A DNA stretch of 64,000 nt from an uncultured Bacilli bacterium (GCA_947629165.1 CANRCR010000001.1:12729-76728); one strand, 5' to 3'; counted from the stretch's first letter, positions 56,195 through 64,000 are shown. Program-made: numbers and translations. The notes: a model not told the origin generated them from the letters alone.

Positions 56195-56584
56195 TTGATT
56201 GTAATCACAGTAGGGGGATTTTAGGATGAACAATATTATATTAAACGAAGAATTAAAAATTGAAAATATGATTTATGAAGTAAGAGGAAAGCAAGTTATG
56301 TTAGACTCTGATTTGGCAAAATTGTATGGAGTAGAAACAAAAAGAATCAATGAGGCAGTTAGAAGAAATTTTGAAAAATTTCCAGAGAGATTTTGTTTTA
56401 AATTAAGTAAAAATGAGTATCTTAATCTTCTAAGGTCGCAAAATGCGACCTTAGAACTAAAACGTGGTCAATATTCAAAGTACTTACCTCGTGTATTTAC
56501 CGAACAAGGAGTGGCAATGCTTGCAACAATTTTAAAATCAGATGTTGCAACGCAAGTTAGTATTGCCATAATGGATGCTTTTGT
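56193..56584 (+). repeat. copy A of a mosaic tandem duplication (partner 57271..57668)
   Basis: Block 1: 56193-56361 vs 57271-57439, 169 bp with 4 mismatches (hand count). It covers the 5' UTR, RBS and first 45 codons. Block 2: 56481-56584 vs 57565-57668, 104 bp with 3 mismatches. The segment between the blocks and everything downstream is strongly diverged. Confidence 0.9.
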
Positions 56585-57113
56585 AACGATGCGAAAATAT
56601 ATTTCTAATGAATTGATTCCGCAAAAATATATTAACAATTTAGTGATAAAACATGATAATGAGATTAAATTGTTACAAGAATCTTTTGCTAAATTTGAAG
56701 AAAAGAAAAAAGATAATGAAATTTATTTTAATGGACAAATCTATGATGCTTATTCAAAAATCATGGCTATTTTAAAAGAAGCACACGACAACATAATTAT
56801 TATTGATAACTATGCAGATAAAGTTGTTTTAGATATGATTAGGAATCTAAAAATTGATGTCACTATAATATGTAAAAGTAATGGCTTATTAAAAGGAATA
56901 GATATAAATAAATATCAACAACAATATAATAATCTAAAAGTGATTTATAGTAATAATTTTCATGATCGGTATATTATATTAGATCAAAATATAATTTATC
57001 ATTGTGGGGCTTCTCTTAACTATGCAGGTAGTAAAACTTTTTCAATTAACAAATTAGAAGATAAATTTGTAAAAGATAGTTTAATGAAATATGTACTTGC
57101 AATTATAGAATAA
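56226..57113 (+). CDS. ORF6N (KilA-N-like) DNA-binding domain protein with C-terminal degenerate PLD/HKD-like domain, paralog A
   Basis: N-terminus IYEVRGKQVMLDSDLAKLYGVETKRINEAV...FPERF...LRSQ...YLPRVFTEQGVAMLATILKSD.A.QVSIAIMDAF is the ORF6N pattern. C-terminus IIIIDNYAD...FHDRYIILDQNIIYHCGASLN (nt 56961-57020). GGGGGA RBS. Confidence 0.72.
   Translation: MNNIILNEELKIENMIYEVRGKQVMLDSDLAKLYGVETKRINEAVRRNFEKFPERFCFKLSKNEYLNLLRSQNATLELKRGQYSKYLPRVFTEQGVAMLATILKSDVATQVSIAIMDAFVTMRKYISNELIPQKYINNLVIKHDNEIKLLQESFAKFEEKKKDNEIYFNGQIYDAYSKIMAILKEAHDNIIIIDNYADKVVLDMIRNLKIDVTIICKSNGLLKGIDINKYQQQYNNLKVIYSNNFHDRYIILDQNIIYHCGASLNYAGSKTFSINKLEDKFVKDSLMKYVLAIIE
56428..56456 (+). repeat. perfect intragenic inverted repeat (13-bp arms, 3-nt loop) in paralog A
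   Basis: TTCTAAGGTCGCA AAA TGCGACCTTAGAA, encoding LRSQNATLE. Confidence 0.95.
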
Positions 57114-57270: not shown

Positions 57271-57668
57271 TTTTGATTGTAATCACAGTAGGGGGATTTT
57301 AGGATGAACAATATTATATTAAACGAAGAATTAAAAATTGAAAATATGATTTACGAAGTAAGAGGAAAGCAAGTAATGCTAGACTCTGATTTGGCAAAAT
57401 TGTATGGAGTAGAAACTAAAAGAATCAATGAGGCAGTTAAAAACAATCCAGATAAATTTCCTGAAAGATTCTCTTGGTTTTTAAATGACGATGAATGGAA
57501 TTTTTTAAGGTCGAAATTTTCGACCTTAAAAACTCATGAATTTGGAAGAGGAACGCACAGAAAATACTTACCTCGTGTATTTACCGAACAAGGAGTAGCC
57601 ATGCTTGCAACAATTTTAAAATCAGATGTTGCAACGCAAGTTAGTATTGCTATAATGGATGCTTTTGT
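57271..57668 (+). repeat. copy B of the mosaic tandem duplication (partner 56193..56584)
   Basis: See copy A. The offset is 1078 nt for block 1 and 1084 nt for block 2. Confidence 0.9.
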
Positions 57669-58185
57669 TCATATGCGTCATTATATTTTAGAAAATAAAG
57701 ATATTTATCAATCTTTAAATAATATAAATAACAAATTGATCGAGCATGATGAAAAAATTAATTATATATTTTCTATTTTTGATAAAAAAGAAAAAATATT
57801 TTTACCTGGAGAAAGTTATGATGCCTATTCTGAAATTATAGATATCTTAAATACAGCTAAAAAAGAAATAATTATAATCGATAGTTATGCTGATAAAACG
57901 ATGTTAGATTTTATTCGAAATATTAATTCTAAAATTATTCTTATAACGAGTGATAAGGCAAAACTAGGTTCCTTCGAATTGGAAAAATTTAATAGACAGT
58001 ATAATAAATTAAAAGTTATAAAGAACAATACTTTTCATGATCGTTATTTTATAATCGATAGAAATATTTTTTTTCATATCGGGACTTCTTTAAATTATAT
58101 TGGAGCAAAGGTTTTTAGTATCAACCGATTAGAAGATGATTTTATTAAGAAAATTTTATTAGATTATATACTTGAAATAATTTAA
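57304..58185 (+). CDS. ORF6N (KilA-N-like) DNA-binding domain protein with C-terminal degenerate PLD/HKD-like domain, paralog B
   Basis: Same architecture as paralog A. C-terminus IIIIDSYAD...FHDRYFIIDRNIFFHIGTSLN (nt 58036-58095). The C-terminal halves are only about 40 percent identical by eye. Confidence 0.72.
   Translation: MNNIILNEELKIENMIYEVRGKQVMLDSDLAKLYGVETKRINEAVKNNPDKFPERFSWFLNDDEWNFLRSKFSTLKTHEFGRGTHRKYLPRVFTEQGVAMLATILKSDVATQVSIAIMDAFVHMRHYILENKDIYQSLNNINNKLIEHDEKINYIFSIFDKKEKIFLPGESYDAYSEIIDILNTAKKEIIIIDSYADKTMLDFIRNINSKIILITSDKAKLGSFELEKFNRQYNKLKVIKNNTFHDRYFIIDRNIFFHIGTSLNYIGAKVFSINRLEDDFIKKILLDYILEII
57502..57532 (+). repeat. perfect 31-nt intragenic palindrome (15-bp arms) in paralog B
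   Basis: TTTTTAAGGTCGAAA T TTTCGACCTTAAAAA, encoding FLRSKFSTLKT. Same relative position as the palindrome in paralog A. Confidence 0.95.
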
Positions 58186-58202: not shown

Positions 58203-58227
58203 TATTGAATTGTTTCAATATTTTTTA
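58203..58227 (+). terminator. intrinsic terminator (first of two) after paralog B
   Basis: TATTGAA (58203-58209) TTGT TTCAATA (58214-58220) followed by TTTTTT. Confidence 0.6.
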
Positions 58228-58235
58228 TTCCTTAT

Positions 58236-58262
58236 AAAGGGTGCAAAAATGTGCCTTTTTTG
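58236..58262 (+). terminator. intrinsic terminator (second of two)
   Basis: AAAGGGTGCA AAAA TGTGCCTTT (two G-U pairs) followed by TTTTT. Confidence 0.55.
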
Positions 58263-58271
58263 GTGTTTTCA

Positions 58272-58300
58272 TTGACGAATGATACTTTTGACATTATAAT
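58272..58300 (+). promoter_or_regulatory. near-consensus sigma-A promoter of the vWA-AAA+-ankyrin operon
   Basis: TTGACG (58272-58277), 17 nt spacer, TATAAT (58295-58300). Confidence 0.75.
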
Positions 58301-58325
58301 ATATCCCTACTAGGGAGGAATGTGT

Positions 58326-60785
58326 ATGCGGTTTTGGCATTTTGTAAAAAATCAATTTAGCAATGCAAAAAACGAAAGTAATTCCTCTTCTATAGAAAAG
58401 AAAGAAGATTTAAGTAAGTCCGAATTCGATACTAAAGAACCAATACAAAAAAAAGAAATACCTAATGAACAATTAGCCGAATCGACTCCATTACCCAACC
58501 AAGCAAATCAAGAAAATGGAAGCGATACAAAAAATCAAGATGAAACTCAAAACCAAAGTGAGCAACAAAGTACAGAAACTTCACAAGAAAAAGATAGTCA
58601 ACAAGGTCAAAATAGCCAACAAGGGGCAAGTGGCCAGGAACCCACTAAAGAACAAGCACAAAAAGATTCACAAAATCAAAGTGAACAACAAGAATCAACC
58701 AGTGAACGGAAACAAGACGGTCAGCAAGATCAATCCGGACAATCGAAAGCAACTAGAAATCAGGAACAAACGGAAACACAAAGTCATGAAAATCAAACAA
58801 GTTCAACTGAAGAGCAAGGACAAACTGATTCCCAAAGTTCAAGTGAACAAGAACAAAGTACTCAATCTAATTCTTTGGAGGATTATATAGAAATTAGAAT
58901 TCTAAGAGATGAAATTCCCCAACCACCTCAACCAAATGAACAAAATCAAGATAATTCAAATCAGAATTCTGATTTAAATAGTCCTTCACCATCTTCTTCA
59001 TTTCCATCATTACCTCAAATGGGTCATCAAGTAATTGAAATTGACTTACGTAGTAATCCAAATCAACTTCCTGAACATAGTGAAGATTTATCCCAATCAA
59101 CTGAATCCCAAGAATCATCTAGTCAACAAGAACAAGATGAACAACAAAGTCAGGATGATCAACAGGAACAAAGTAGTCAACCAGGTCAAAGTGGACAGCA
59201 GGAACAAAGTGGTCAACAAGATCATGTAGGACAACAGGAACAAGGTGGGCAACAAGGACAAAGCGGTCAATCAGGTCAAAGCGAACAGCAAGACCAAAGT
59301 AGTCAACAAGATCAAGTAGGACAACAGGAACAAGGTGGGCAACTAGGTCAAAGTGGACAGCAAGGACAAAGTAGTCAATCAGGTCAGGCTGGACAACAGG
59401 GACAAAGTAGTCAATCAGGTCAGGTTGGACAACAGGGACAAAGTGGGCAACCAGGTCAAATTGGACAACAAGGACAAAGCAGTCAATCGGGTCAAATTGG
59501 ACAGCAAAGTCAAAGTAGTCAACCAGGCCAAGATGGACCATCAGGACAAAGTGATCAACAAAGTCAAGGTAATCAAAGTTCTTCTGTGAAATCTAGTGGT
59601 CAAAGTGGACAAGATTCACAAATAGAGACTTCTTCTCAAGGAACATCCAGTAATCCAAATGAAACTCAGAATACTTCTATAGAGGGAGAATCTTCTTCTG
59701 AAATAGAAACCAGTGATTCAAATACTTTGGATAGTCAACAATCTTCTGAAGCAACGGGAGAACGTACTCGTAATTCTACCCAACAAGGAGAAGGAATGTC
59801 ATCCTCTAAGAAAACTATCGAAAAAAAATCCCAACCTAAAATACGAGATCATCTCAAGGGAGAACCAACACCATTAGATCTTTTAAAAGAGCAAATTGAA
59901 AAGCCACAACGCTCGGAAGCAACAAATCAATTTTTAGGGCAACTAGAACAATTACCATCTTTTAAAGAAAGAAGTCATGGAGGAAGTTATTCCATCGATA
60001 CGGAAAGTGATAGTGAAGTTCCAGAAAGTGTTGTTCGAACATTGATATCTAAATTTTTAAATCAACGCTTTTGTAAAAGAGTTAGCGATTTAAATATACG
60101 TAGTAACGCTTTAGAAAAAGCCGATGGATTTTATAAATGGGATATTAAAAAAATTGTTCGTCATTTGGAAACGGCTCAATTGACAAAAGTCATTAATGAT
60201 AAATATGGCTATCAATATGCGCAAGGAAAATATGAATCAGTTCCATTATCTTTCTACTTTGATTTATCGGGAAGTATGAGTAGTTATACCAATATGTTAG
60301 CCGTTATGGCAATCGAACTATTAAAGAAGGATGTCAAGGTTTTAGTTGGATTTAATCAAACCGTTCATGTTCAAATTGAACAAATACCAAAACAGTTATC
60401 GGTTTCTGAACTAGCTGATTTTTTAACTGCAGCGGGATCTTATTATTCCGATGAAGAAAGGTATCAACAAAAGTCAAAGGGACAAATCAAGTATCGTGTA
60501 GTAGATGAAGATTTAGATACTTATTTGATTGATAAGAAAGCAGAAAAATGTGTTGTTTTTGCCGATTGTGATCCACTATATTCGGTGGTACGTCTATCCC
60601 AAAAGGCACAAGTTTATTGGTTTAACTTTGAATCTAATTTTAGTCGATCGGATTTGTCGGATTATAAAGGATTTGTTTATGAAGTACATTGTATGAAAGA
60701 TATTCAAAAAGGACTTATTAAAGTAAATGAAAATCGTTTTGAGGCATTGACTTATATCGATAATCCAAAAGTATTAAGGAGGTAA
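58326..60785 (+). CDS. von Willebrand factor A (vWA) domain protein with ~560 aa Gln/Ser/Gly/Glu-rich disordered N-terminal region
   Basis: ATG 58326 lies 7 nt after GGGAGG (the track start 58320 overlaps the RBS). No signal peptide or TM helix. The C-terminal ~230 aa have a hydrophobic strand followed by the MIDAS motif VPLSFYFDLSGSMSS (DxSxS at nt 60261-60275). Confidence 0.75.
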   Translation: MRFWHFVKNQFSNAKNESNSSSIEKKEDLSKSEFDTKEPIQKKEIPNEQLAESTPLPNQANQENGSDTKNQDETQNQSEQQSTETSQEKDSQQGQNSQQGASGQEPTKEQAQKDSQNQSEQQESTSERKQDGQQDQSGQSKATRNQEQTETQSHENQTSSTEEQGQTDSQSSSEQEQSTQSNSLEDYIEIRILRDEIPQPPQPNEQNQDNSNQNSDLNSPSPSSSFPSLPQMGHQVIEIDLRSNPNQLPEHSEDLSQSTESQESSSQQEQDEQQSQDDQQEQSSQPGQSGQQEQSGQQDHVGQQEQGGQQGQSGQSGQSEQQDQSSQQDQVGQQEQGGQLGQSGQQGQSSQSGQAGQQGQSSQSGQVGQQGQSGQPGQIGQQGQSSQSGQIGQQSQSSQPGQDGPSGQSDQQSQGNQSSSVKSSGQSGQDSQIETSSQGTSSNPNETQNTSIEGESSSEIETSDSNTLDSQQSSEATGERTRNSTQQGEGMSSSKKTIEKKSQPKIRDHLKGEPTPLDLLKEQIEKPQRSEATNQFLGQLEQLPSFKERSHGGSYSIDTESDSEVPESVVRTLISKFLNQRFCKRVSDLNIRSNALEKADGFYKWDIKKIVRHLETAQLTKVINDKYGYQYAQGKYESVPLSFYFDLSGSMSSYTNMLAVMAIELLKKDVKVLVGFNQTVHVQIEQIPKQLSVSELADFLTAAGSYYSDEERYQQKSKGQIKYRVVDEDLDTYLIDKKAEKCVVFADCDPLYSVVRLSQKAQVYWFNFESNFSRSDLSDYKGFVYEVHCMKDIQKGLIKVNENRFEALTYIDNPKVLRR
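59214..59343 (+). repeat. 40-nt direct repeat at 90-bp spacing within the Q-rich coding region
   Basis: 59214-59253 and 59304-59343 (caacaagatca[t/a]gtaggacaacaggaacaaggtgggcaac) differ at 1 position. Confidence 0.9.
59364..59543 (+). repeat. five tandem 36-bp (12-codon) coding repeats, unit GQSSQSGQ(A/V/I)GQQ
   Basis: Units start at 59364, 59400, 59436, 59472 and 59508. They are in frame with the CDS. The first two differ at one base and later units are progressively degenerate. Confidence 0.9.
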
Positions 60786-60791
60786 CAAAAT

Positions 60792-62582
60792 ATGAAATTA
60801 ATAACAATCGAAGAATTAAAGAAAGAAATTGAGGCAACGGGATATTATCCAACGGAGGAGTTACTATATGACACATTCAATGCGCTTTCAATTTTTCAAC
60901 AAGATCAAATTAATCCCGGACAAGATGTGTTTGCGCTTTGTTTAGAGGGACCTCCTGGAGCTGGTAAAACGGCTTTTGCAAAAATGTATCGTAATATAGT
61001 AAGTCAACAATTTTTTGATCCTGTCGAATTAGTTGAATACCAATGCGATCCGGCAACTTCGGAAGAAAAATTAAAAGAAGATATTCGTATTGTGGCGGTT
61101 GTTACACGCGATGGAAAAGAAGTTATTATTCCGGGTATTTTGGTAAAAACGGTCCAAATGTTAAATGAAGGAAAAAGGGTAATTCTTTTTATTGATGAAT
61201 ATGATAAAGCAAGAGAAGAGACTGATTCTTTCTTCTTACAGTTCTTACAAGATGGAAAATTAAATGCGGTTCAGTCGGGAGATATGGAGATTAAACCGGA
61301 ATATAAAAATAATTTGCAAGTTATCTTTTGTAAAAATGATGCCCGCGAAGAATTATCTGGACCACTTACAAGACGTCTTCGTATTTTAAGACTCGATTAT
61401 ATGGAACCTAGTTTATTTTATACCGTTGCTAAACGTGTTTTAATAGACGATGCAAAAGAAAAAGTGGAAGAGTCTTTACTTAACTTAGTAACTTTGATGT
61501 ATCAAAATGCCTATGAACAAAAAGATGTATATAATCGGTTACCTGCTTGTTCTGAAATGCTTATTGCGATTGAAGACGCTAACCGTTTAATGACGCTTGC
61601 AAATGCACCTAAATACATACTTTATCGAACCATTGTTAAGAATATGTTTAAAAATAAAGACGATTTAGTTACTTTCGAATCAAATTTATCAAAATCAAGA
61701 AATAAAGATAAGAAATTAGCCGAGTTAATTAAAGAAATGCAACAAGGGGAAGAATCACTACCTCTAGCAGAACAAAAGAAAGAGTTAAATTCTTTAATGG
61801 CACAAACTGTTTTTGAAGGAGAAGCTAGCAAATTTGCTGAAAAGATTAAAGAAGTTGAGGAACTTATATCAAAGTATGAAAAAGAATTTGAGGCTATGCG
61901 GGTTCGTTATCAAAATCAACAAGAACAAGAAATTGCACGAATTCGTTTAGAAAGCGGACAATTAATAGCCAATGGATTACGTCCTAAAACGATTGGTAAT
62001 TTTGAAGATGAATCTTCTCAAGTAAAACGTGGAAAGAATATTTTCGATATTTCCGAAGGAGAGGATTGGGTCGATGTAGCAACGATGGTAATACCAAATT
62101 TATCACATACTTTGTTGATTGAAAAATTAATTGAATTTGGAACTGATTTGGTTATTTACGAAAATGGTGTTTTACTTCAAGATACGGATAATCATAAGAT
62201 GATTGTTTTCAAAGAATTGGATGAAAATAATCAACCACGTTATCGAATGATGGCAAATCATGCCGTAATTCCATCTACTTATTTAGCGGATGTTTACGCT
62301 TTTGTCGATTTCTCAAAGCAAGTTCTTAGTAGTCAAACGACTTCTCCTGGTATTCGCCAAGATCCGTATTATGAGATAAATGCTTTGGTATACAACGATG
62401 TACCATTAACTTACGATACCGTCGATGATCATGTATATCATGTTGAAATTCGTGATCGTGTTCAAAATGTTGATTCTTTAGGAACACTTGCCAGTCAAAT
62501 GACTTGTGAAAATTTAGCTTCGGTTCAAGCAGCGCACGATAAGTTAATGAACGAACCAAAGAAGGTGTATGTTCATGCTTAG
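60792..62582 (+). CDS. AAA+ ATPase (MoxR / AAA_5-like) with extended coiled-coil and unknown C-terminal domain
   Basis: Walker A LEGPPGAGKTAFAK (nt 60948-60971) and Walker B RVILFIDEYDKA. Conserved Arg-rich LTRRLRIL. About 300 further aa, including a Glu/Lys-rich helical stretch. Starts 7 nt after the vWA stop with an AGGAGG RBS. Confidence 0.8.
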   Translation: MKLITIEELKKEIEATGYYPTEELLYDTFNALSIFQQDQINPGQDVFALCLEGPPGAGKTAFAKMYRNIVSQQFFDPVELVEYQCDPATSEEKLKEDIRIVAVVTRDGKEVIIPGILVKTVQMLNEGKRVILFIDEYDKAREETDSFFLQFLQDGKLNAVQSGDMEIKPEYKNNLQVIFCKNDAREELSGPLTRRLRILRLDYMEPSLFYTVAKRVLIDDAKEKVEESLLNLVTLMYQNAYEQKDVYNRLPACSEMLIAIEDANRLMTLANAPKYILYRTIVKNMFKNKDDLVTFESNLSKSRNKDKKLAELIKEMQQGEESLPLAEQKKELNSLMAQTVFEGEASKFAEKIKEVEELISKYEKEFEAMRVRYQNQQEQEIARIRLESGQLIANGLRPKTIGNFEDESSQVKRGKNIFDISEGEDWVDVATMVIPNLSHTLLIEKLIEFGTDLVIYENGVLLQDTDNHKMIVFKELDENNQPRYRMMANHAVIPSTYLADVYAFVDFSKQVLSSQTTSPGIRQDPYYEINALVYNDVPLTYDTVDDHVYHVEIRDRVQNVDSLGTLASQMTCENLASVQAAHDKLMNEPKKVYVHA

Positions 62583-63288
62583 TATCGATTTAAGTGAAAT
62601 AGAACAACAAAAAGAAAGTGTTTTAGCAAGTTTTGAATTAAATCAGGCTTCTTGTAAACAGTTCCAAGATCAAATTGCTTCGGTTTCAGAACTTGAAAAA
62701 GAACAATTAGGGGAACAACTTTACGATTTATTATCGAAACGAACTTTTGATGATACGGATGGTGCCGATCAAGTAAGAGATTTGATTTTAGCAGGGGCAG
62801 ATATATCTTATTTGCCTGAGCAAGGAGATTTTCCTTTGTATATTTGTGCTCGTAACAATTATTTTAAATCTTTTTGCTATCTATTAAGAGCAGGGGCTCC
62901 GCTTGACCAAGTGAATGCTATGGGATCGAGTCCTATTATGATTAGTGCCATCAAAGGGAACCAAGATATTTTAGTATTTTTATTACTTTTAGGAGCTAAT
63001 GTCAATCTTCGTGATGAATATGGTAATAATGCTATCATGTATGCTCGTAAGTATAACCGAAAAGAATGTTTTGAGTTATTATTACTTCATGGGGCTTATA
63101 TCAATAATCGTAATTTTGAAGGAAAAACAATATTTGATATTGAGACAGGAAAAAGTGCATTTCCACTTCCGATTGACATTCCTCCCGAATTTATAAAACC
63201 AGAAGAACGAGTAACTTACGGCGATCTAAAAAAGTTAGTTTATAATGCGCACGACGAGGTGGCTCGTGTAAAGGGTAGGCTTTCATAA
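62575..63288 (+). CDS. ankyrin-repeat protein
   Basis: ATG 62575 lies 7 nt after GAAGGTG and overlaps the AAA+ stop (ATGCTTAG); alternative ATG at 62569. Three to four ANK-like repeats (e.g. GSSPIMISAIKGNQDILVFLLLLGANVNLRD, GNNAIMYARKYNRKECFELLLLHGAYINNRN). Confidence 0.8.
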   Translation: MLSIDLSEIEQQKESVLASFELNQASCKQFQDQIASVSELEKEQLGEQLYDLLSKRTFDDTDGADQVRDLILAGADISYLPEQGDFPLYICARNNYFKSFCYLLRAGAPLDQVNAMGSSPIMISAIKGNQDILVFLLLLGANVNLRDEYGNNAIMYARKYNRKECFELLLLHGAYINNRNFEGKTIFDIETGKSAFPLPIDIPPEFIKPEERVTYGDLKKLVYNAHDEVARVKGRLS

Positions 63289-63316
63289 AATAAAGAGGAC
63301 TTATCCTTTTTATTTT
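63289..63316 (+). terminator. intrinsic terminator after the ankyrin gene
   Basis: AAAGAGGA (63292-63299) CTTA TCCTTTTT (63304-63311), with one G-U pair, followed by ATTTT. Confidence 0.6.
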
Positions 63317-63342
63317 GGTATAATAAAAGAAGGTGATGAGGG

Positions 63343-64000
63343 ATGAAACAACTTTTAATTATCGGTGGGGGTGCTTCTGGGTTAACCTGTGCGATTGTGG
63401 CTCGAAGAAGAGGTTATCAAGTAACTGTAGTTGAAAAGAATGATCGCTTTGCTAAAAAAATATTAATGACTGGAGCGGGAAGATGTAATTATTGGAATCA
63501 AGAAATGACTTTAACTCATTTTCATTCTTCTGAACGTGATTATTTATCCTCTTTTTTAAGCGAAGAAGATTACTCGAAAGTACTTCCTTTTTTAGATTCT
63601 ATTGGTATTGTTCCTAAAATAAAAGAAGGTTACTATTATCCTTCGACCTATCAAGCTTCTACGGTACGAGAGGCACTTATTTACGAGGCCACTCAATTAG
63701 GAGTTGAACTTGTTTCTTCGTTTGAAGTTACTAAAATCGAAAAAAAGAATCATCGGTTTTATGTCTTTCATAACGATTGTGTACTTGAAAGTGATTGGGT
63801 TGTTTTAGCGAGTGGATCGAATAGCGGACTTAAAGATAAAAATAATCTACTTTTATCGGTTGCAAGCGTTTTTGGACATACCGTTATTCCACTTTTACCT
63901 AGTTTGGTTCCTTTAAAAGGAAAAGGAAATTTCTTTGCACGTTGGGATGGGGTTCGAGCTCCCGTTACGGTATCTTATCAGGTAGATCATCAAATCATGC
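63343..64000 (+). CDS. HI0933/YhiN (BaiN-like) family FAD-dependent oxidoreductase, 3'-truncated by the window end
   Basis: Absent from the ORF track because it has no stop in the window. Own translation: MKQLLIIGGGASGLTCAIVA...KKILMTGAGRCNYWN, the dinucleotide-binding and GxGRCN signatures of this family. AAGGTGATGAGGG RBS and TGGTATAAT extended -10 at 63316-63324. Confidence 0.8.
   Translation, partial: MKQLLIIGGGASGLTCAIVARRRGYQVTVVEKNDRFAKKILMTGAGRCNYWNQEMTLTHFHSSERDYLSSFLSEEDYSKVLPFLDSIGIVPKIKEGYYYPSTYQASTVREALIYEATQLGVELVSSFEVTKIEKKNHRFYVFHNDCVLESDWVVLASGSNSGLKDKNNLLLSVASVFGHTVIPLLPSLVPLKGKGNFFARWDGVRAPVTVSYQVDHQIM

Follow-up and report, generated by a model that had tools for sequence, protein, structure and literature searches.

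The window analysed here, a 64,000-nucleotide (nt) stretch of DNA from an uncultured Bacilli bacterium (GCA_947629165.1 CANRCR010000001.1:12729-76728), carries within positions 58203-63316 three co-directional open reading frames (ORFs) on the plus strand, coding for a protein that ends in a vWA-like domain (gene 1), an AAA+ ATPase (gene 2) and an ankyrin-repeat protein (gene 3). A first-pass annotation of this DNA had described them as a discrete, tightly packed operon set behind a near-consensus promoter (TTGACG-N17-TATAAT), with two hairpins upstream and one downstream, a gene 3 overlapping the stop codon of gene 2, the motifs GPPGAGKT (Walker A), ILFIDEYD (Walker B) and FDLSGSMS, three to four ankyrin repeats, and neither transmembrane helix nor signal peptide on any of the three proteins. 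All of these features are found, the three motifs being moreover invariant in their families and the first hairpin being weak (Table 1), and this description of the sequence is therefore confirmed. The maximum 19-residue Kyte-Doolittle score of the three proteins does not exceed 1.7, and none has a transmembrane helix or signal peptide, from which all three are predicted to be cytoplasmic.

The three ORFs are translationally coupled. Gene 1 is preceded by a Shine-Dalgarno (SD) sequence, AGGGAGGA, at 58309-58316, and its ATG at 58326, 9 nt 3' of the GGAGG core, is preferred over the one at 58320 because of this spacing, and because the homologues begin with M-R/K-F-W. The SD of gene 2 (AAGGAGG) lies within the final codons of gene 1, the ATG following 6 nt past the gene 1 stop. 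For gene 3 the most likely start is ATG 62575, in an 8-nt overlap with the TAG stop codon of gene 2 (ATGCTTAG); its SD spacing favours it over the alternative ATG 62569. Regarding transcription signals, promoter matches of at least 11/12 are not enriched across the window (5, vs 3.4 +/- 1.6 in shuffled sequences); the four found on the plus strand (58272, 41011, 44352 and 56166) are all intergenic and located just 5' of genes, which suggests that the organism uses canonical sigma-70-type promoters. The second upstream hairpin (58236-58269) is terminator-like, and would end the transcription unit of the upstream ORF6N gene.

The product of gene 2 matches Pfam AAA_5 (PF07728) over profile positions 2-138 of 139, with E = 3.2e-12 and 47.1 bits for a cut-off of 22. 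Generic AAA models score below AAA_5, the homologues pass the AAA_5 threshold as well, and a longer Clostridial homologue is also above the Mg_chelatase threshold. The catalytic motifs listed in Table 1, together with a lid arginine (R249), are invariant in an alignment of 32 sequences, and the Walker A/B motifs, the sensor-1 Asn and the Arg pair are kept in the Clostridial branch and in the remote branch of locus L132. Judged from these residues, gene 2 codes for a catalytically intact AAA+ ATPase. In its AlphaFold model (mean predicted local distance difference test, pLDDT, of 70), two N-terminal helices precede the AAA+ core, a helical lid region, a long helix and a C-terminal domain. The unique C-terminal half of the protein comprises about 400 amino acids (aa), and the alpha/beta domain that ends it has no Pfam or PDB sequence match, and is absent or replaced in the Clostridial homologues.

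The MoxR clade in its broad sense, which groups dynein-midasin, MoxR and YifB as well as chelatase ATPases, is defined by an insert in helix 2 of the AAA+ core (Kaur et al. 2020). In the model of gene 2, helix 2 is interrupted at this place by an insert that includes a segment of about 20 residues with pLDDT below 50, the hairpin itself having no confident model. The insert aligns with the helix-2 region of RavA, and the whole stretch from Walker A to Walker B matches E. coli RavA motif by motif. The best Foldseek matches in the PDB are AAA modules of dynein motors (E = 1e-5), followed by Lon, ClpA, ORC, RFC and McrB; further matches, to LRRK2/Roco COR regions, could not be localised. A relation to McrB and type IV restriction was rejected, McrB ranking only 47-48 in the Foldseek list with a probability of about 0.65, and no McrC-like partner being present. 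Gene 2 probably fits the broad helix-2-insert (MoxR-dynein-chelatase) clade, as an ATPase of the AAA_5 type. Genomic pairing with a vWA co-factor, another trait of this broad clade, is found here too, on the condition that the C-terminal domain of gene 1 is indeed a vWA domain.

The conserved C-terminal region of gene 1 spans about 255 aa, of which the first 70 or so (pre-vWA segment) are very conserved and represent a candidate docking segment for the ATPase, while the last 170 or so form an alpha/beta domain. In the AlphaFold 2 (AF2) model, the elements of this domain follow each other in the order b1, a1, b2/b3 antiparallel hairpin, helices, b4, a, b5, a, b6, a, a strand order like that of the six-stranded Rossmannoid vWA fold. 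The metal site of vWA domains, or metal ion-dependent adhesion site (MIDAS), involves conserved Asp residues that end core strands 1 and 4 (PMC7159879), and the domain of gene 1 has an Asp at the end of both strands. Within the family, D126 (FYFD-x-S-x-S motif) as well as D227 and D229 (F-x-D-x-D motif) are invariant; when remote relatives are included (35-sequence alignment), the DxSxS residues remain nearly invariant, and the strand-4 Asp pair is the sole invariant feature.

Comparisons of the predicted structure point in the same direction. The best named Foldseek matches in the PDB are vWA proteins (the bacterial 4fx5, with a probability of 0.97, the A1/A2 domains of VWF, p44 of TFIIH, and NorD of the NorQD complex), and BFVD, an independent viral library, returned three proteins named VWFA (probability 0.82-0.90). 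As for sequence profiles, VWA_CoxE is the only Pfam family that recurs among the members of the gene 1 C-domain family (2 of 36, E ~0.1) and their remote relatives (3 of 29, best E = 8.7e-4), always below threshold. CoxE is the vWA partner of the MoxR-class ATPase CoxD. On the basis of the modelled fold and of these residues, the C-terminal domain of gene 1 is probably a highly divergent domain of the vWA/MIDAS type.

To what extent are these genes linked elsewhere? Protein searches returned about 300 relatives of gene 2 and 134 of the gene 1 C-domain, essentially all of them unnamed metagenomic proteins, and 138 clusters were retrieved when 1.84 billion representative proteins were searched with a hidden Markov model (HMM) of the gene 1 C-domain. 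Scanning a single genome for each of 185,579 species gave 40 loci. All lie in metagenome-assembled genomes (MAGs) of uncultured gut Bacilli, 'Tenericutes', Erysipelotrichaceae, Mollicutes or Clostridia, which come from rabbit, goat, buffalo (rumen), chicken, mouse and human hosts. The gene of the gene 1 C-domain family is immediately 5' of the gene 2 relative in all of the loci holding both (44/44), a 45th locus, cut by a contig end, having the former alone. As a rule, the pair is translationally coupled. In Bacilli loci the two genes overlap by 4-14 nt or are separated by a few nt, and about 30 of these loci have, directly 3', an ankyrin gene that bears gene 3's specific N-terminal module. 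In the loci of Clostridia MAGs (L036-L045), a gene of about 115 aa (c5) is intercalated between the pair, and the ATPase is longer (693-835 aa) and differs in its C-terminal half. One remote relative of the gene 1 C-domain (E = 2.7e-15) is found in reversed order, directly after a 510-aa AAA_5 ATPase that is 27% identical to gene 2 (E = 3e-28).

The adjacency in 44/44 loci and the remote reversed pair thus designate the ATPase and the vWA-like protein as an old, co-inherited core, and the ankyrin protein, restricted to the Bacilli branch, as a clade-specific third component. The triad, whose conservation elsewhere the first-pass annotation had made a condition of its reading, is kept together as a unit in uncultured gut Bacillota only. 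The larger Bacilli clade has the operon at another site than the window does, with a conserved gene (c4, about 260 aa) ahead of it, which may represent a fourth component. Within the c4 protein a unit of about 125 aa is tandemly duplicated, and its sole match, Tox-REase-9, is sub-threshold (E = 1.2e-3); c4 is absent from the window, as are the LRR_5 (leucine-rich repeat) genes mentioned below.

Gene 3 matches Pfam Ank_2 (E = 7.1e-23) and Ank (E = 3.1e-17, over three stretches), with tandem repeats of the 33-residue ANK type. They are preceded by a family-specific N-terminal module, with the consensus LE..K..L..Y.LD..SI.EF..KI..VS.EE...LG.EL, whose HMM recovers every operon-linked ankyrin gene of the Bacilli loci as well as internal duplicates in longer paralogues; a profile search with this module was uninformative, returning two short fragments only. 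Over 22 complete triads, the mean pairwise identity is 68% for the gene 1 C-domain, 58% for gene 2 and 45% for gene 3. The variability of gene 3 peaks in its C-terminal tail and is not significantly concentrated at the canonical target-binding positions of the repeats (1.44 vs 1.20 bits, one-sided p = 0.11), so that a diversifying ankyrin surface is unsupported. In some loci the ATPase gene is followed by a tandem array of two to five ankyrin paralogues of 250-520 aa (L024 5859-11875, L029 3894-6986, L023 2665-4218), and some of the array proteins of about 500 aa bear the module of the gene 3 type twice or internally.

At its other end, gene 1 starts with a short motif common to homologues from many Bacilli loci and represented in Clostridial ones by a related KFW/VFY...LEK motif. 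Between this motif and the conserved C-terminal region lies a strongly acidic, Q/S/E/G-rich disordered linker, whose length varies from about 100 to 520 aa among homologues, and for which the term 'prion-like' used in the first-pass annotation was overstated. Part of the linker is encoded by imperfect DNA repeats that give rise to G-Q-x triplets, but the matches to Collagen (23.9 bits vs a cut-off of 27.2) and SclB (47 vs 325) are compositional, and an adhesin of the Collagen/Scl kind was rejected, the triplets being interrupted, with S, E or D often replacing G, and signal peptide and LPXTG motif being absent. ORFs of 50-140 aa are also present on both strands over this region (58462-59589, for example 59119-59541 on the minus strand and 58516-58890 on the plus strand); they are by-products of the low-complexity repeats and not genes.

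Table 1. Features of the three-gene operon and of its borders, with positions counted from the first nucleotide of the window
Feature	Position	Strand	Remarks
Weak AT-only hairpin followed by T-run	58203-58220	+	-4.6 kcal/mol, z = -1.8; 3' of second ORF6N gene
Terminator-like hairpin	58236-58259, T-run to 58269	+	10-bp stem; -9.3 to -10.6 kcal/mol
Sigma-70-type promoter TTGACG-17-TATAAT	58272-58300	+	11/12 match; intergenic, ~20 nt 5' of SD
Gene 1	58326-60785	+	819 aa: N-terminal motif, acidic disordered linker, C-terminal vWA-like domain
Extreme N-terminal motif of gene 1, MRFWHFVKNQ	58326-58355	+	family consensus M-[RK]-F-W-x-[FY]-[IV]-K
Low-complexity acidic linker of gene 1	58416-59960	+	residues 31-545; Q 25%, S 18%, E 10%, G 9%; isoelectric point (pI) 4.2; 9% hydrophobic
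Imperfect tandem DNA repeats in linker	59124-59567	+	periods 18/36/72/108 nt (Tandem Repeats Finder, TRF); encode G-Q-x triplets
Pre-vWA segment of gene 1	60021-60236	+	LISKFLNQRF...DLN.R...W...H...DKYGY; invariant columns; pLDDT <55
vWA/MIDAS-like alpha/beta domain of gene 1	60237-60755	+	AF2 pLDDT 82-93; fold matches; weak VWA_CoxE matches
D-L-S-G-S (DxSxS) MIDAS-type motif	60261-60275	+	end of strand 1; D, S, S invariant in 36 sequences
D-C-D after strand 4	60564-60572	+	family consensus D-F-D; second metal-site Asp position
Gene 2	60792-62582	+	596-aa AAA+ ATPase (AAA_5 type), unique C-terminal half
Walker A GPPGAGKT	60948-60971	+	G53-K59 invariant
Insert interrupting helix 2 of AAA+ core	61050-61130	+	~residues 87-113, between helices at 91-96 and 115-125
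Walker B ILFIDEYD	61179-61202	+	signature DEYDKAREETD; D135, E136 invariant
Sensor-1 Asn (CKND) through Arg pair (LTRRL)	61335-61376	+	N182, R194, R195 invariant
Long single helix or coiled-coil of gene 2	61824-61952	+	residues 345-387, AF2 secondary structure
C-terminal alpha/beta domain of gene 2	62049-62561	+	residues 420-590; pLDDT 80-93
Gene 3	62575-63288	+	ankyrin-repeat partner; 237 aa from ATG 62575, 239 aa from ATG 62569
Family-specific N-terminal module of gene 3	62575-62808	+	~75 aa; ...SxKxFQxxIxxVSxxExxxLGxxL...
Three to four ankyrin repeats of gene 3	62836-63141	+	Pfam Ank_2/Ank/Ank_4/Ank_5
Terminator-like hairpin flanked by A-run and T-run	63286-63317	+	-12.4 kcal/mol, z = -3.9; operon end

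By analogy with RavA-ViaA, CbbQO, NorQD, CoxDE, midasin and ChlD, we propose with moderate confidence that the product of the operon is a module of the MoxR-vWA type, cytoplasmic and ATP-driven, that remodels proteins and is equipped with a dedicated third subunit. Gene 2 would assemble into a hexameric ring, onto which the C-terminal region of gene 1 would dock, probably via the conserved pre-vWA segment, while its MIDAS-like site would clamp an acidic or extended peptide of the target. The ankyrin protein could act as a specificity adaptor that presents this target, or could itself be the client, and ATP hydrolysis would then pull on or remodel the bound protein. The acidic linker of gene 1, capped by the M-R-F-W-x-F-x-K peptide, would serve as a flexible tether, whose terminal peptide may bind a second site, for example the pore of the ring or the groove of the ankyrin protein.

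Few AAA+ machines are as widespread and as little understood as MoxR-vWA pairs, of which only a handful have known clients. As in RavA-ViaA, CbbQ-CbbO, NorQ-NorD and CoxD-CoxE, the operon combines adjacent genes for an AAA+ protein, probably of the helix-2-insert clade, and a protein with a probable vWA/MIDAS-type domain, both cytoplasmic; its weak sequence link is to VWA of the CoxE type, and NorD is among its structural matches. Unlike in these pairs, the vWA gene comes first here, and codes for a vWA-like domain beyond the reach of any profile, with an acidic disordered linker of 100-520 aa and a conserved N-terminal peptide on the same protein; the ATPase is extended by a unique stretch of 400 aa (a helical region, then a long helix and an alpha/beta domain), the operon has a dedicated ankyrin subunit, and no client enzyme gene lies nearby.

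A second point of comparison is provided by midasin (Rea1) and ChlD, in which an ATPase of the AAA_5/chelatase type and a MIDAS domain preceded by a long acidic low-complexity linker are found in one polypeptide. The acidic linker before the MIDAS, the dynein-family fold matches of gene 2 and the homologue that passes the Mg_chelatase threshold recall this arrangement, a likeness in architecture. In contrast with midasin and ChlD, the ATPase on the one hand, and the linker and MIDAS on the other hand, are split over two genes here, and neither a ChlH/CobN-like nor a ribosome-assembly partner accompanies them. Bat operons (Bacteroides aerotolerance) encode a MoxR protein, a DUF58 protein, vWA proteins (BatA/B) and TPR proteins. 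They thus bring together a MoxR-clade ATPase, vWA and solenoid-repeat proteins in one operon as well, but the vWA proteins of Bat operons are anchored in the membrane and Pfam recognises them, the repeats are TPR and not ANK, and no DUF58 gene is present here.

No curated family covers gene 1, the C-terminal half of gene 2 or the N-terminal module of gene 3, and searches of the literature for MoxR, vWA and ankyrin together returned nothing that resembles the module, in line with its having been presented as a candidate undescribed system. What is new here is best classed as a third subunit and accessory regions added to an otherwise recognisable class of MoxR-clade AAA+/vWA co-factor systems. 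The family contributes a compact and delimited three-component version of such systems, with an ankyrin subunit, an acidic linker plus MIDAS set apart from the ATPase, and a new ATPase C-terminal domain, in organisms of which very little has been explored, the uncultured gut Bacillota. As the system is small and its operon tight, it lends itself to reconstitution, which could reveal the way in which substrate selection is coupled to an AAA+ ring by a vWA co-factor and a repeat adaptor.

Several results weigh against this proposal. On the ATPase side, gene 2 has no AAA_3 (PF07726) match, and RavA, CbbQ and NorQ are not among its top 50 Foldseek matches; membership of MoxR proper is therefore not shown (hhalign against RavA giving a probability of only 26%), and from the MoxR/AAA_5-like assignment of the first-pass annotation, AAA_5 and the broad clade stand while MoxR in the narrow sense is unsupported. 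As far as the third subunit is concerned, the ankyrin gene is missing in the Clostridial loci, and missing or replaced in a few Bacilli loci, and the core can therefore do without it. Most of the negative results concern the domain of gene 1: Pfam and NCBIfam scans of gene 1 gave no VWA match (VWA, VWA_2, VWA_3 and VWA_CoxE in Pfam), no vWA protein was matched by phmmer against the PDB or by three PDB profile searches of growing breadth, and hhalign against E. coli ViaA was negative. Besides, no conserved Thr equivalent to the MIDAS Thr is found between helices 2 and 4 in the 36-sequence alignment, and the Foldseek scores are marginal (E ~2e-3; template-modelling score 0.31 by query, 0.42-0.46 by target). 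At the level of sequence, membership of a curated VWA family cannot be demonstrated for the domain, and the vWA assignment of the first-pass annotation is retained in a weaker form, carried by the marginal fold matches, the DxSGS and strand-4 Asp, and the sub-threshold VWA_CoxE matches.

Could the domain then be an unrelated Rossmann-like fold with a DxSxS-like loop, in which case the analogy with MoxR-vWA pairs would fail? The failure of every sequence-profile test, the Foldseek E-values with their large root-mean-square deviations (8-10 A), and the presence of other Rossmannoid folds (dehydrogenases, phosphofructokinase (PFK), epimerases) in the same PDB match list would be expected in that case. 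It is, however, vWA proteins that head the named matches and have the highest probabilities, in the PDB as in BFVD; the antiparallel b2/b3 hairpin and the Asp residues ending strands 1 and 4 are vWA hallmarks, the sole recurrent Pfam match is a VWA family, and obligate pairing with a helix-2-insert AAA+ protein is the typical context of vWA domains. An unrelated fold is thus quite unlikely.

Another reading starts from the neighbourhood of the operon in the window, where it follows the penicillin-binding protein (PBP), MraY and FtsW genes and two tandem paralogues coding for ORF6N proteins with a C-terminal PLD-like region (56226-57113 and 57304-58185), and is itself followed by a gene for an HI0933-like flavoprotein. 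Both ORF6N genes match the PADLOC single-gene defence candidate PDC-S05 (E = 1e-92). The operon could belong to an NTPase-dependent conflict or sensing system directed against phages or other invaders, analogous to the ternary vWA-MoxR systems, in which the ankyrin protein (or a neighbouring LRR protein) would sense an invader molecule, the AAA+/vWA pair would set a threshold, and an effector would be released. Besides the two candidate defence genes directly 5' of it, and a RelB gene in the related locus L005, this is suggested by the patchy and narrow range of the family, by its location 3' of ftsW in the narrow clade of the window only, by the expanded arrays of repeat-protein paralogues that occupy the third position in L024, L029 and L003, and by the divergence of gene 3, the fastest-evolving of the three genes. 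Sensor pathways based on MoxR-vWA pairs have been predicted, and are now partly tested experimentally (PMC7159879; bioRxiv 10.64898/2026.09.08.750141).

This defence context does not extend to other loci. Among 106 flanking genes pooled from about 33 loci, Pfam matches are mostly to housekeeping families and PADLOC matches are scattered, PDC-S05 being confined to the lineage of the window; a defence island was thus rejected as a general feature, and the accessory-island argument put forward in the first-pass annotation is unsupported. Moreover, the cassette is syntenic among related species. The nearest relatives (L005, L007 and L008) have the same arrangement as the window, and vertical inheritance of the cassette in this lineage can therefore be concluded. 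With respect to these relatives, identity reaches 85-90% for PBP, MraY and FtsW (the dcw genes), 86% for the first ORF6N copy, 71-79% for the gene 1 C-domain, 63-69% for gene 2, 48-58% for the downstream flavoprotein and 36-40% for gene 3. As the flavoprotein is also highly divergent, the divergence of the triad is unexceptional and the idea that the whole triad evolves unusually fast was moderated, gene 3 alone standing out. Compared with the single-copy orthologue of the relatives, the ORF6N copy a is 86% and the copy b 57% identical, so that the duplication looks specific to the genome of the window. In more distant relatives of FtsW (57-73% identical, with at least 3 kb of downstream sequence), the triad is never present; a clean empty site, sought via FtsW relatives from metagenomes, was not found, the triad being absent within 10 kb and downstream synteny being absent as well. 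Restriction to a narrow clade, and not recent insertion, is therefore indicated.

The content of the triad does not favour a defence role either. In the three proteins, Pfam, NCBIfam and PADLOC scans reveal no effector domain, be it nuclease, protease, TIR, pore or another, and the PADLOC scan, although a defence system had been suspected, gave no significant system match: in PADLOC-DB 2.0, gene 1 has no match, gene 2 partial P-loop matches only (PDC-M37B, E = 2e-6, 80 residues), and gene 3 ankyrin-repeat matches only. Relatives are missing from the IMG/VR and GenBank phage collections, and plasmids hold distant AAA-domain matches only, on which grounds an origin from mobile elements was rejected too. 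The variability of the ankyrin protein, as seen above, is not focused on binding positions.

The ternary vWA-MoxR conflict systems (VMAP, iSTAND, iSTAND2, TERNS3; Kaur et al. 2020/2021) resemble the operon in having three components, with a MoxR-clade ATPase, a vWA protein and a third protein that could provide recognition through repeats. In these systems the third component is located 5' and the MoxR-vWA pair 3', with effectors placed C-terminal to the vWA via a vWA-L linker (PMC8195603). Gene order and architecture are unlike these here, where the same scans find neither an effector nor a VMAP/iSTAND/TERNS3 module, nor EAD or Death-like adaptors, and where the taxa are small-genome gut Bacillota. 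A defence role is thus possible but not favoured, and we consider it unlikely. A wider version, in which the AAA_5 ATPase, the vWA-like protein and the solenoid partners (ankyrin arrays, giant LRR_5 proteins) would together form a so far unrecognised module of small-genome gut Bacillota, NTPase-gated and with a sensor or immune role, the repeat proteins recognising a foreign or host molecule and the ATPase, MIDAS clamp and acidic tether converting recognition into a response, appears rather improbable; its effector would possibly be the c4 protein or the products of the adjacent ORF6N-PLD-like genes. If true, it would extend NTPase-gated systems to small-genome gut symbionts, a reading that present evidence does not favour.

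At the opposite end of the functional range, the pair might be an ordinary MoxR-vWA maturation chaperone, of the kind of NorQD, CbbQO, CoxDE and RavA-ViaA, for a single lineage-restricted client encoded elsewhere, with the ankyrin protein as an accessory adaptor. Membership of the MoxR-dynein-chelatase clade and the pairing with a CoxE-like vWA would fit such a function, as would vertical inheritance at a fixed site in related species, beside housekeeping genes, and an ankyrin binding surface that is not hypervariable, as expected for a conserved partner. Against it, a conserved enzyme gene is not found alongside the pair in any of the branches, the operon has no known client enzyme next to it, and the family is extremely rare and restricted. 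To our knowledge, characterised chaperone pairs have no counterpart to the long disordered tail, the C-terminal half of the ATPase or the paralogue arrays. An ordinary chaperone of this kind is therefore distinctly doubtful, and the remodelling module with a dedicated third subunit is preferred to it.

Lastly, it is very improbable that the AAA+/vWA pair serves the handling of eukaryote-like repeat proteins, by assembling, unfolding or delivering ankyrin or LRR_5 proteins for export or cytoplasmic assembly in the course of interactions with a host or protist: such a role would suit the exclusive occurrence in MAGs from host guts, the one or two divergent LRR_5 proteins (1000-1300 aa) that the larger Bacilli clade has next to the operon, and a third position always occupied by a solenoid-repeat protein or a paralogue array, but none of the proteins, the LRR giants included, has a signal peptide, secretion-system genes were not seen among the flanking genes, and the LRR linkage is absent in the clade of the window and could reflect the simple synteny of close relatives.

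Additional observations were made on the loci found elsewhere. The c4 gene is directly 5' of the vWA-like gene in L001 (5346-6134), and also in L010, L011, L015, L017, L022, L025, L048 and L049. The giant LRR_5 genes (one or two, 1000-1300 aa, without signal peptide) are oriented divergently from the operon, 5' of c4, in about 11 Bacilli loci, for example L001 (1179-5284, minus strand), L048 (1-6293) and L049 (1-5153). In L035, a 301-aa gene of the LRR_5 type, which belongs to the same cluster as the giant LRR_5 proteins, lies about 200 nt 3' of the ATPase gene, at the usual position of the ankyrin gene. In L003/L004 (9809-17353), the ankyrin gene is replaced by eight paralogous genes of 258-439 aa, all with MKRI[ED]IP... 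starts, whose products are unrelated to the ankyrin genes and have no Pfam match beyond a faint one to LRR_EndoS.

The Clostridia loci contain small conserved neighbours, c11 and c18. The reversed pair of L132 (4468-7494, ATPase and then vWA-like gene) is just 3' of the S13-S11-S4-RpoA-L17 ribosomal operon, with additional unknown genes (161, 165 and 458 aa) on its flanks. As to plasmids, distant AAA_5 ATPases are encoded by the Clostridium argentinense plasmid pRSJ17_1 (L046, 5938-8077) and by a Thermovibrio plasmid (L047, 4992-7438); they are about 30-35% identical to gene 2 over the core, each is followed by an overlapping hypothetical gene with no Pfam match, integrase genes adjoin them, and they may represent further AAA/co-factor pairs on mobile elements.

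In the window itself, the ORF6N copies each have their own promoter-like site (56166) or terminator-like hairpin. On the other side of the operon, directly 3' of the downstream hairpin (region 63300-63345), an extended -10-like element, TTTTGGTATAAT, precedes the SD and the ATG (63343) of the HI0933-like flavoprotein gene.

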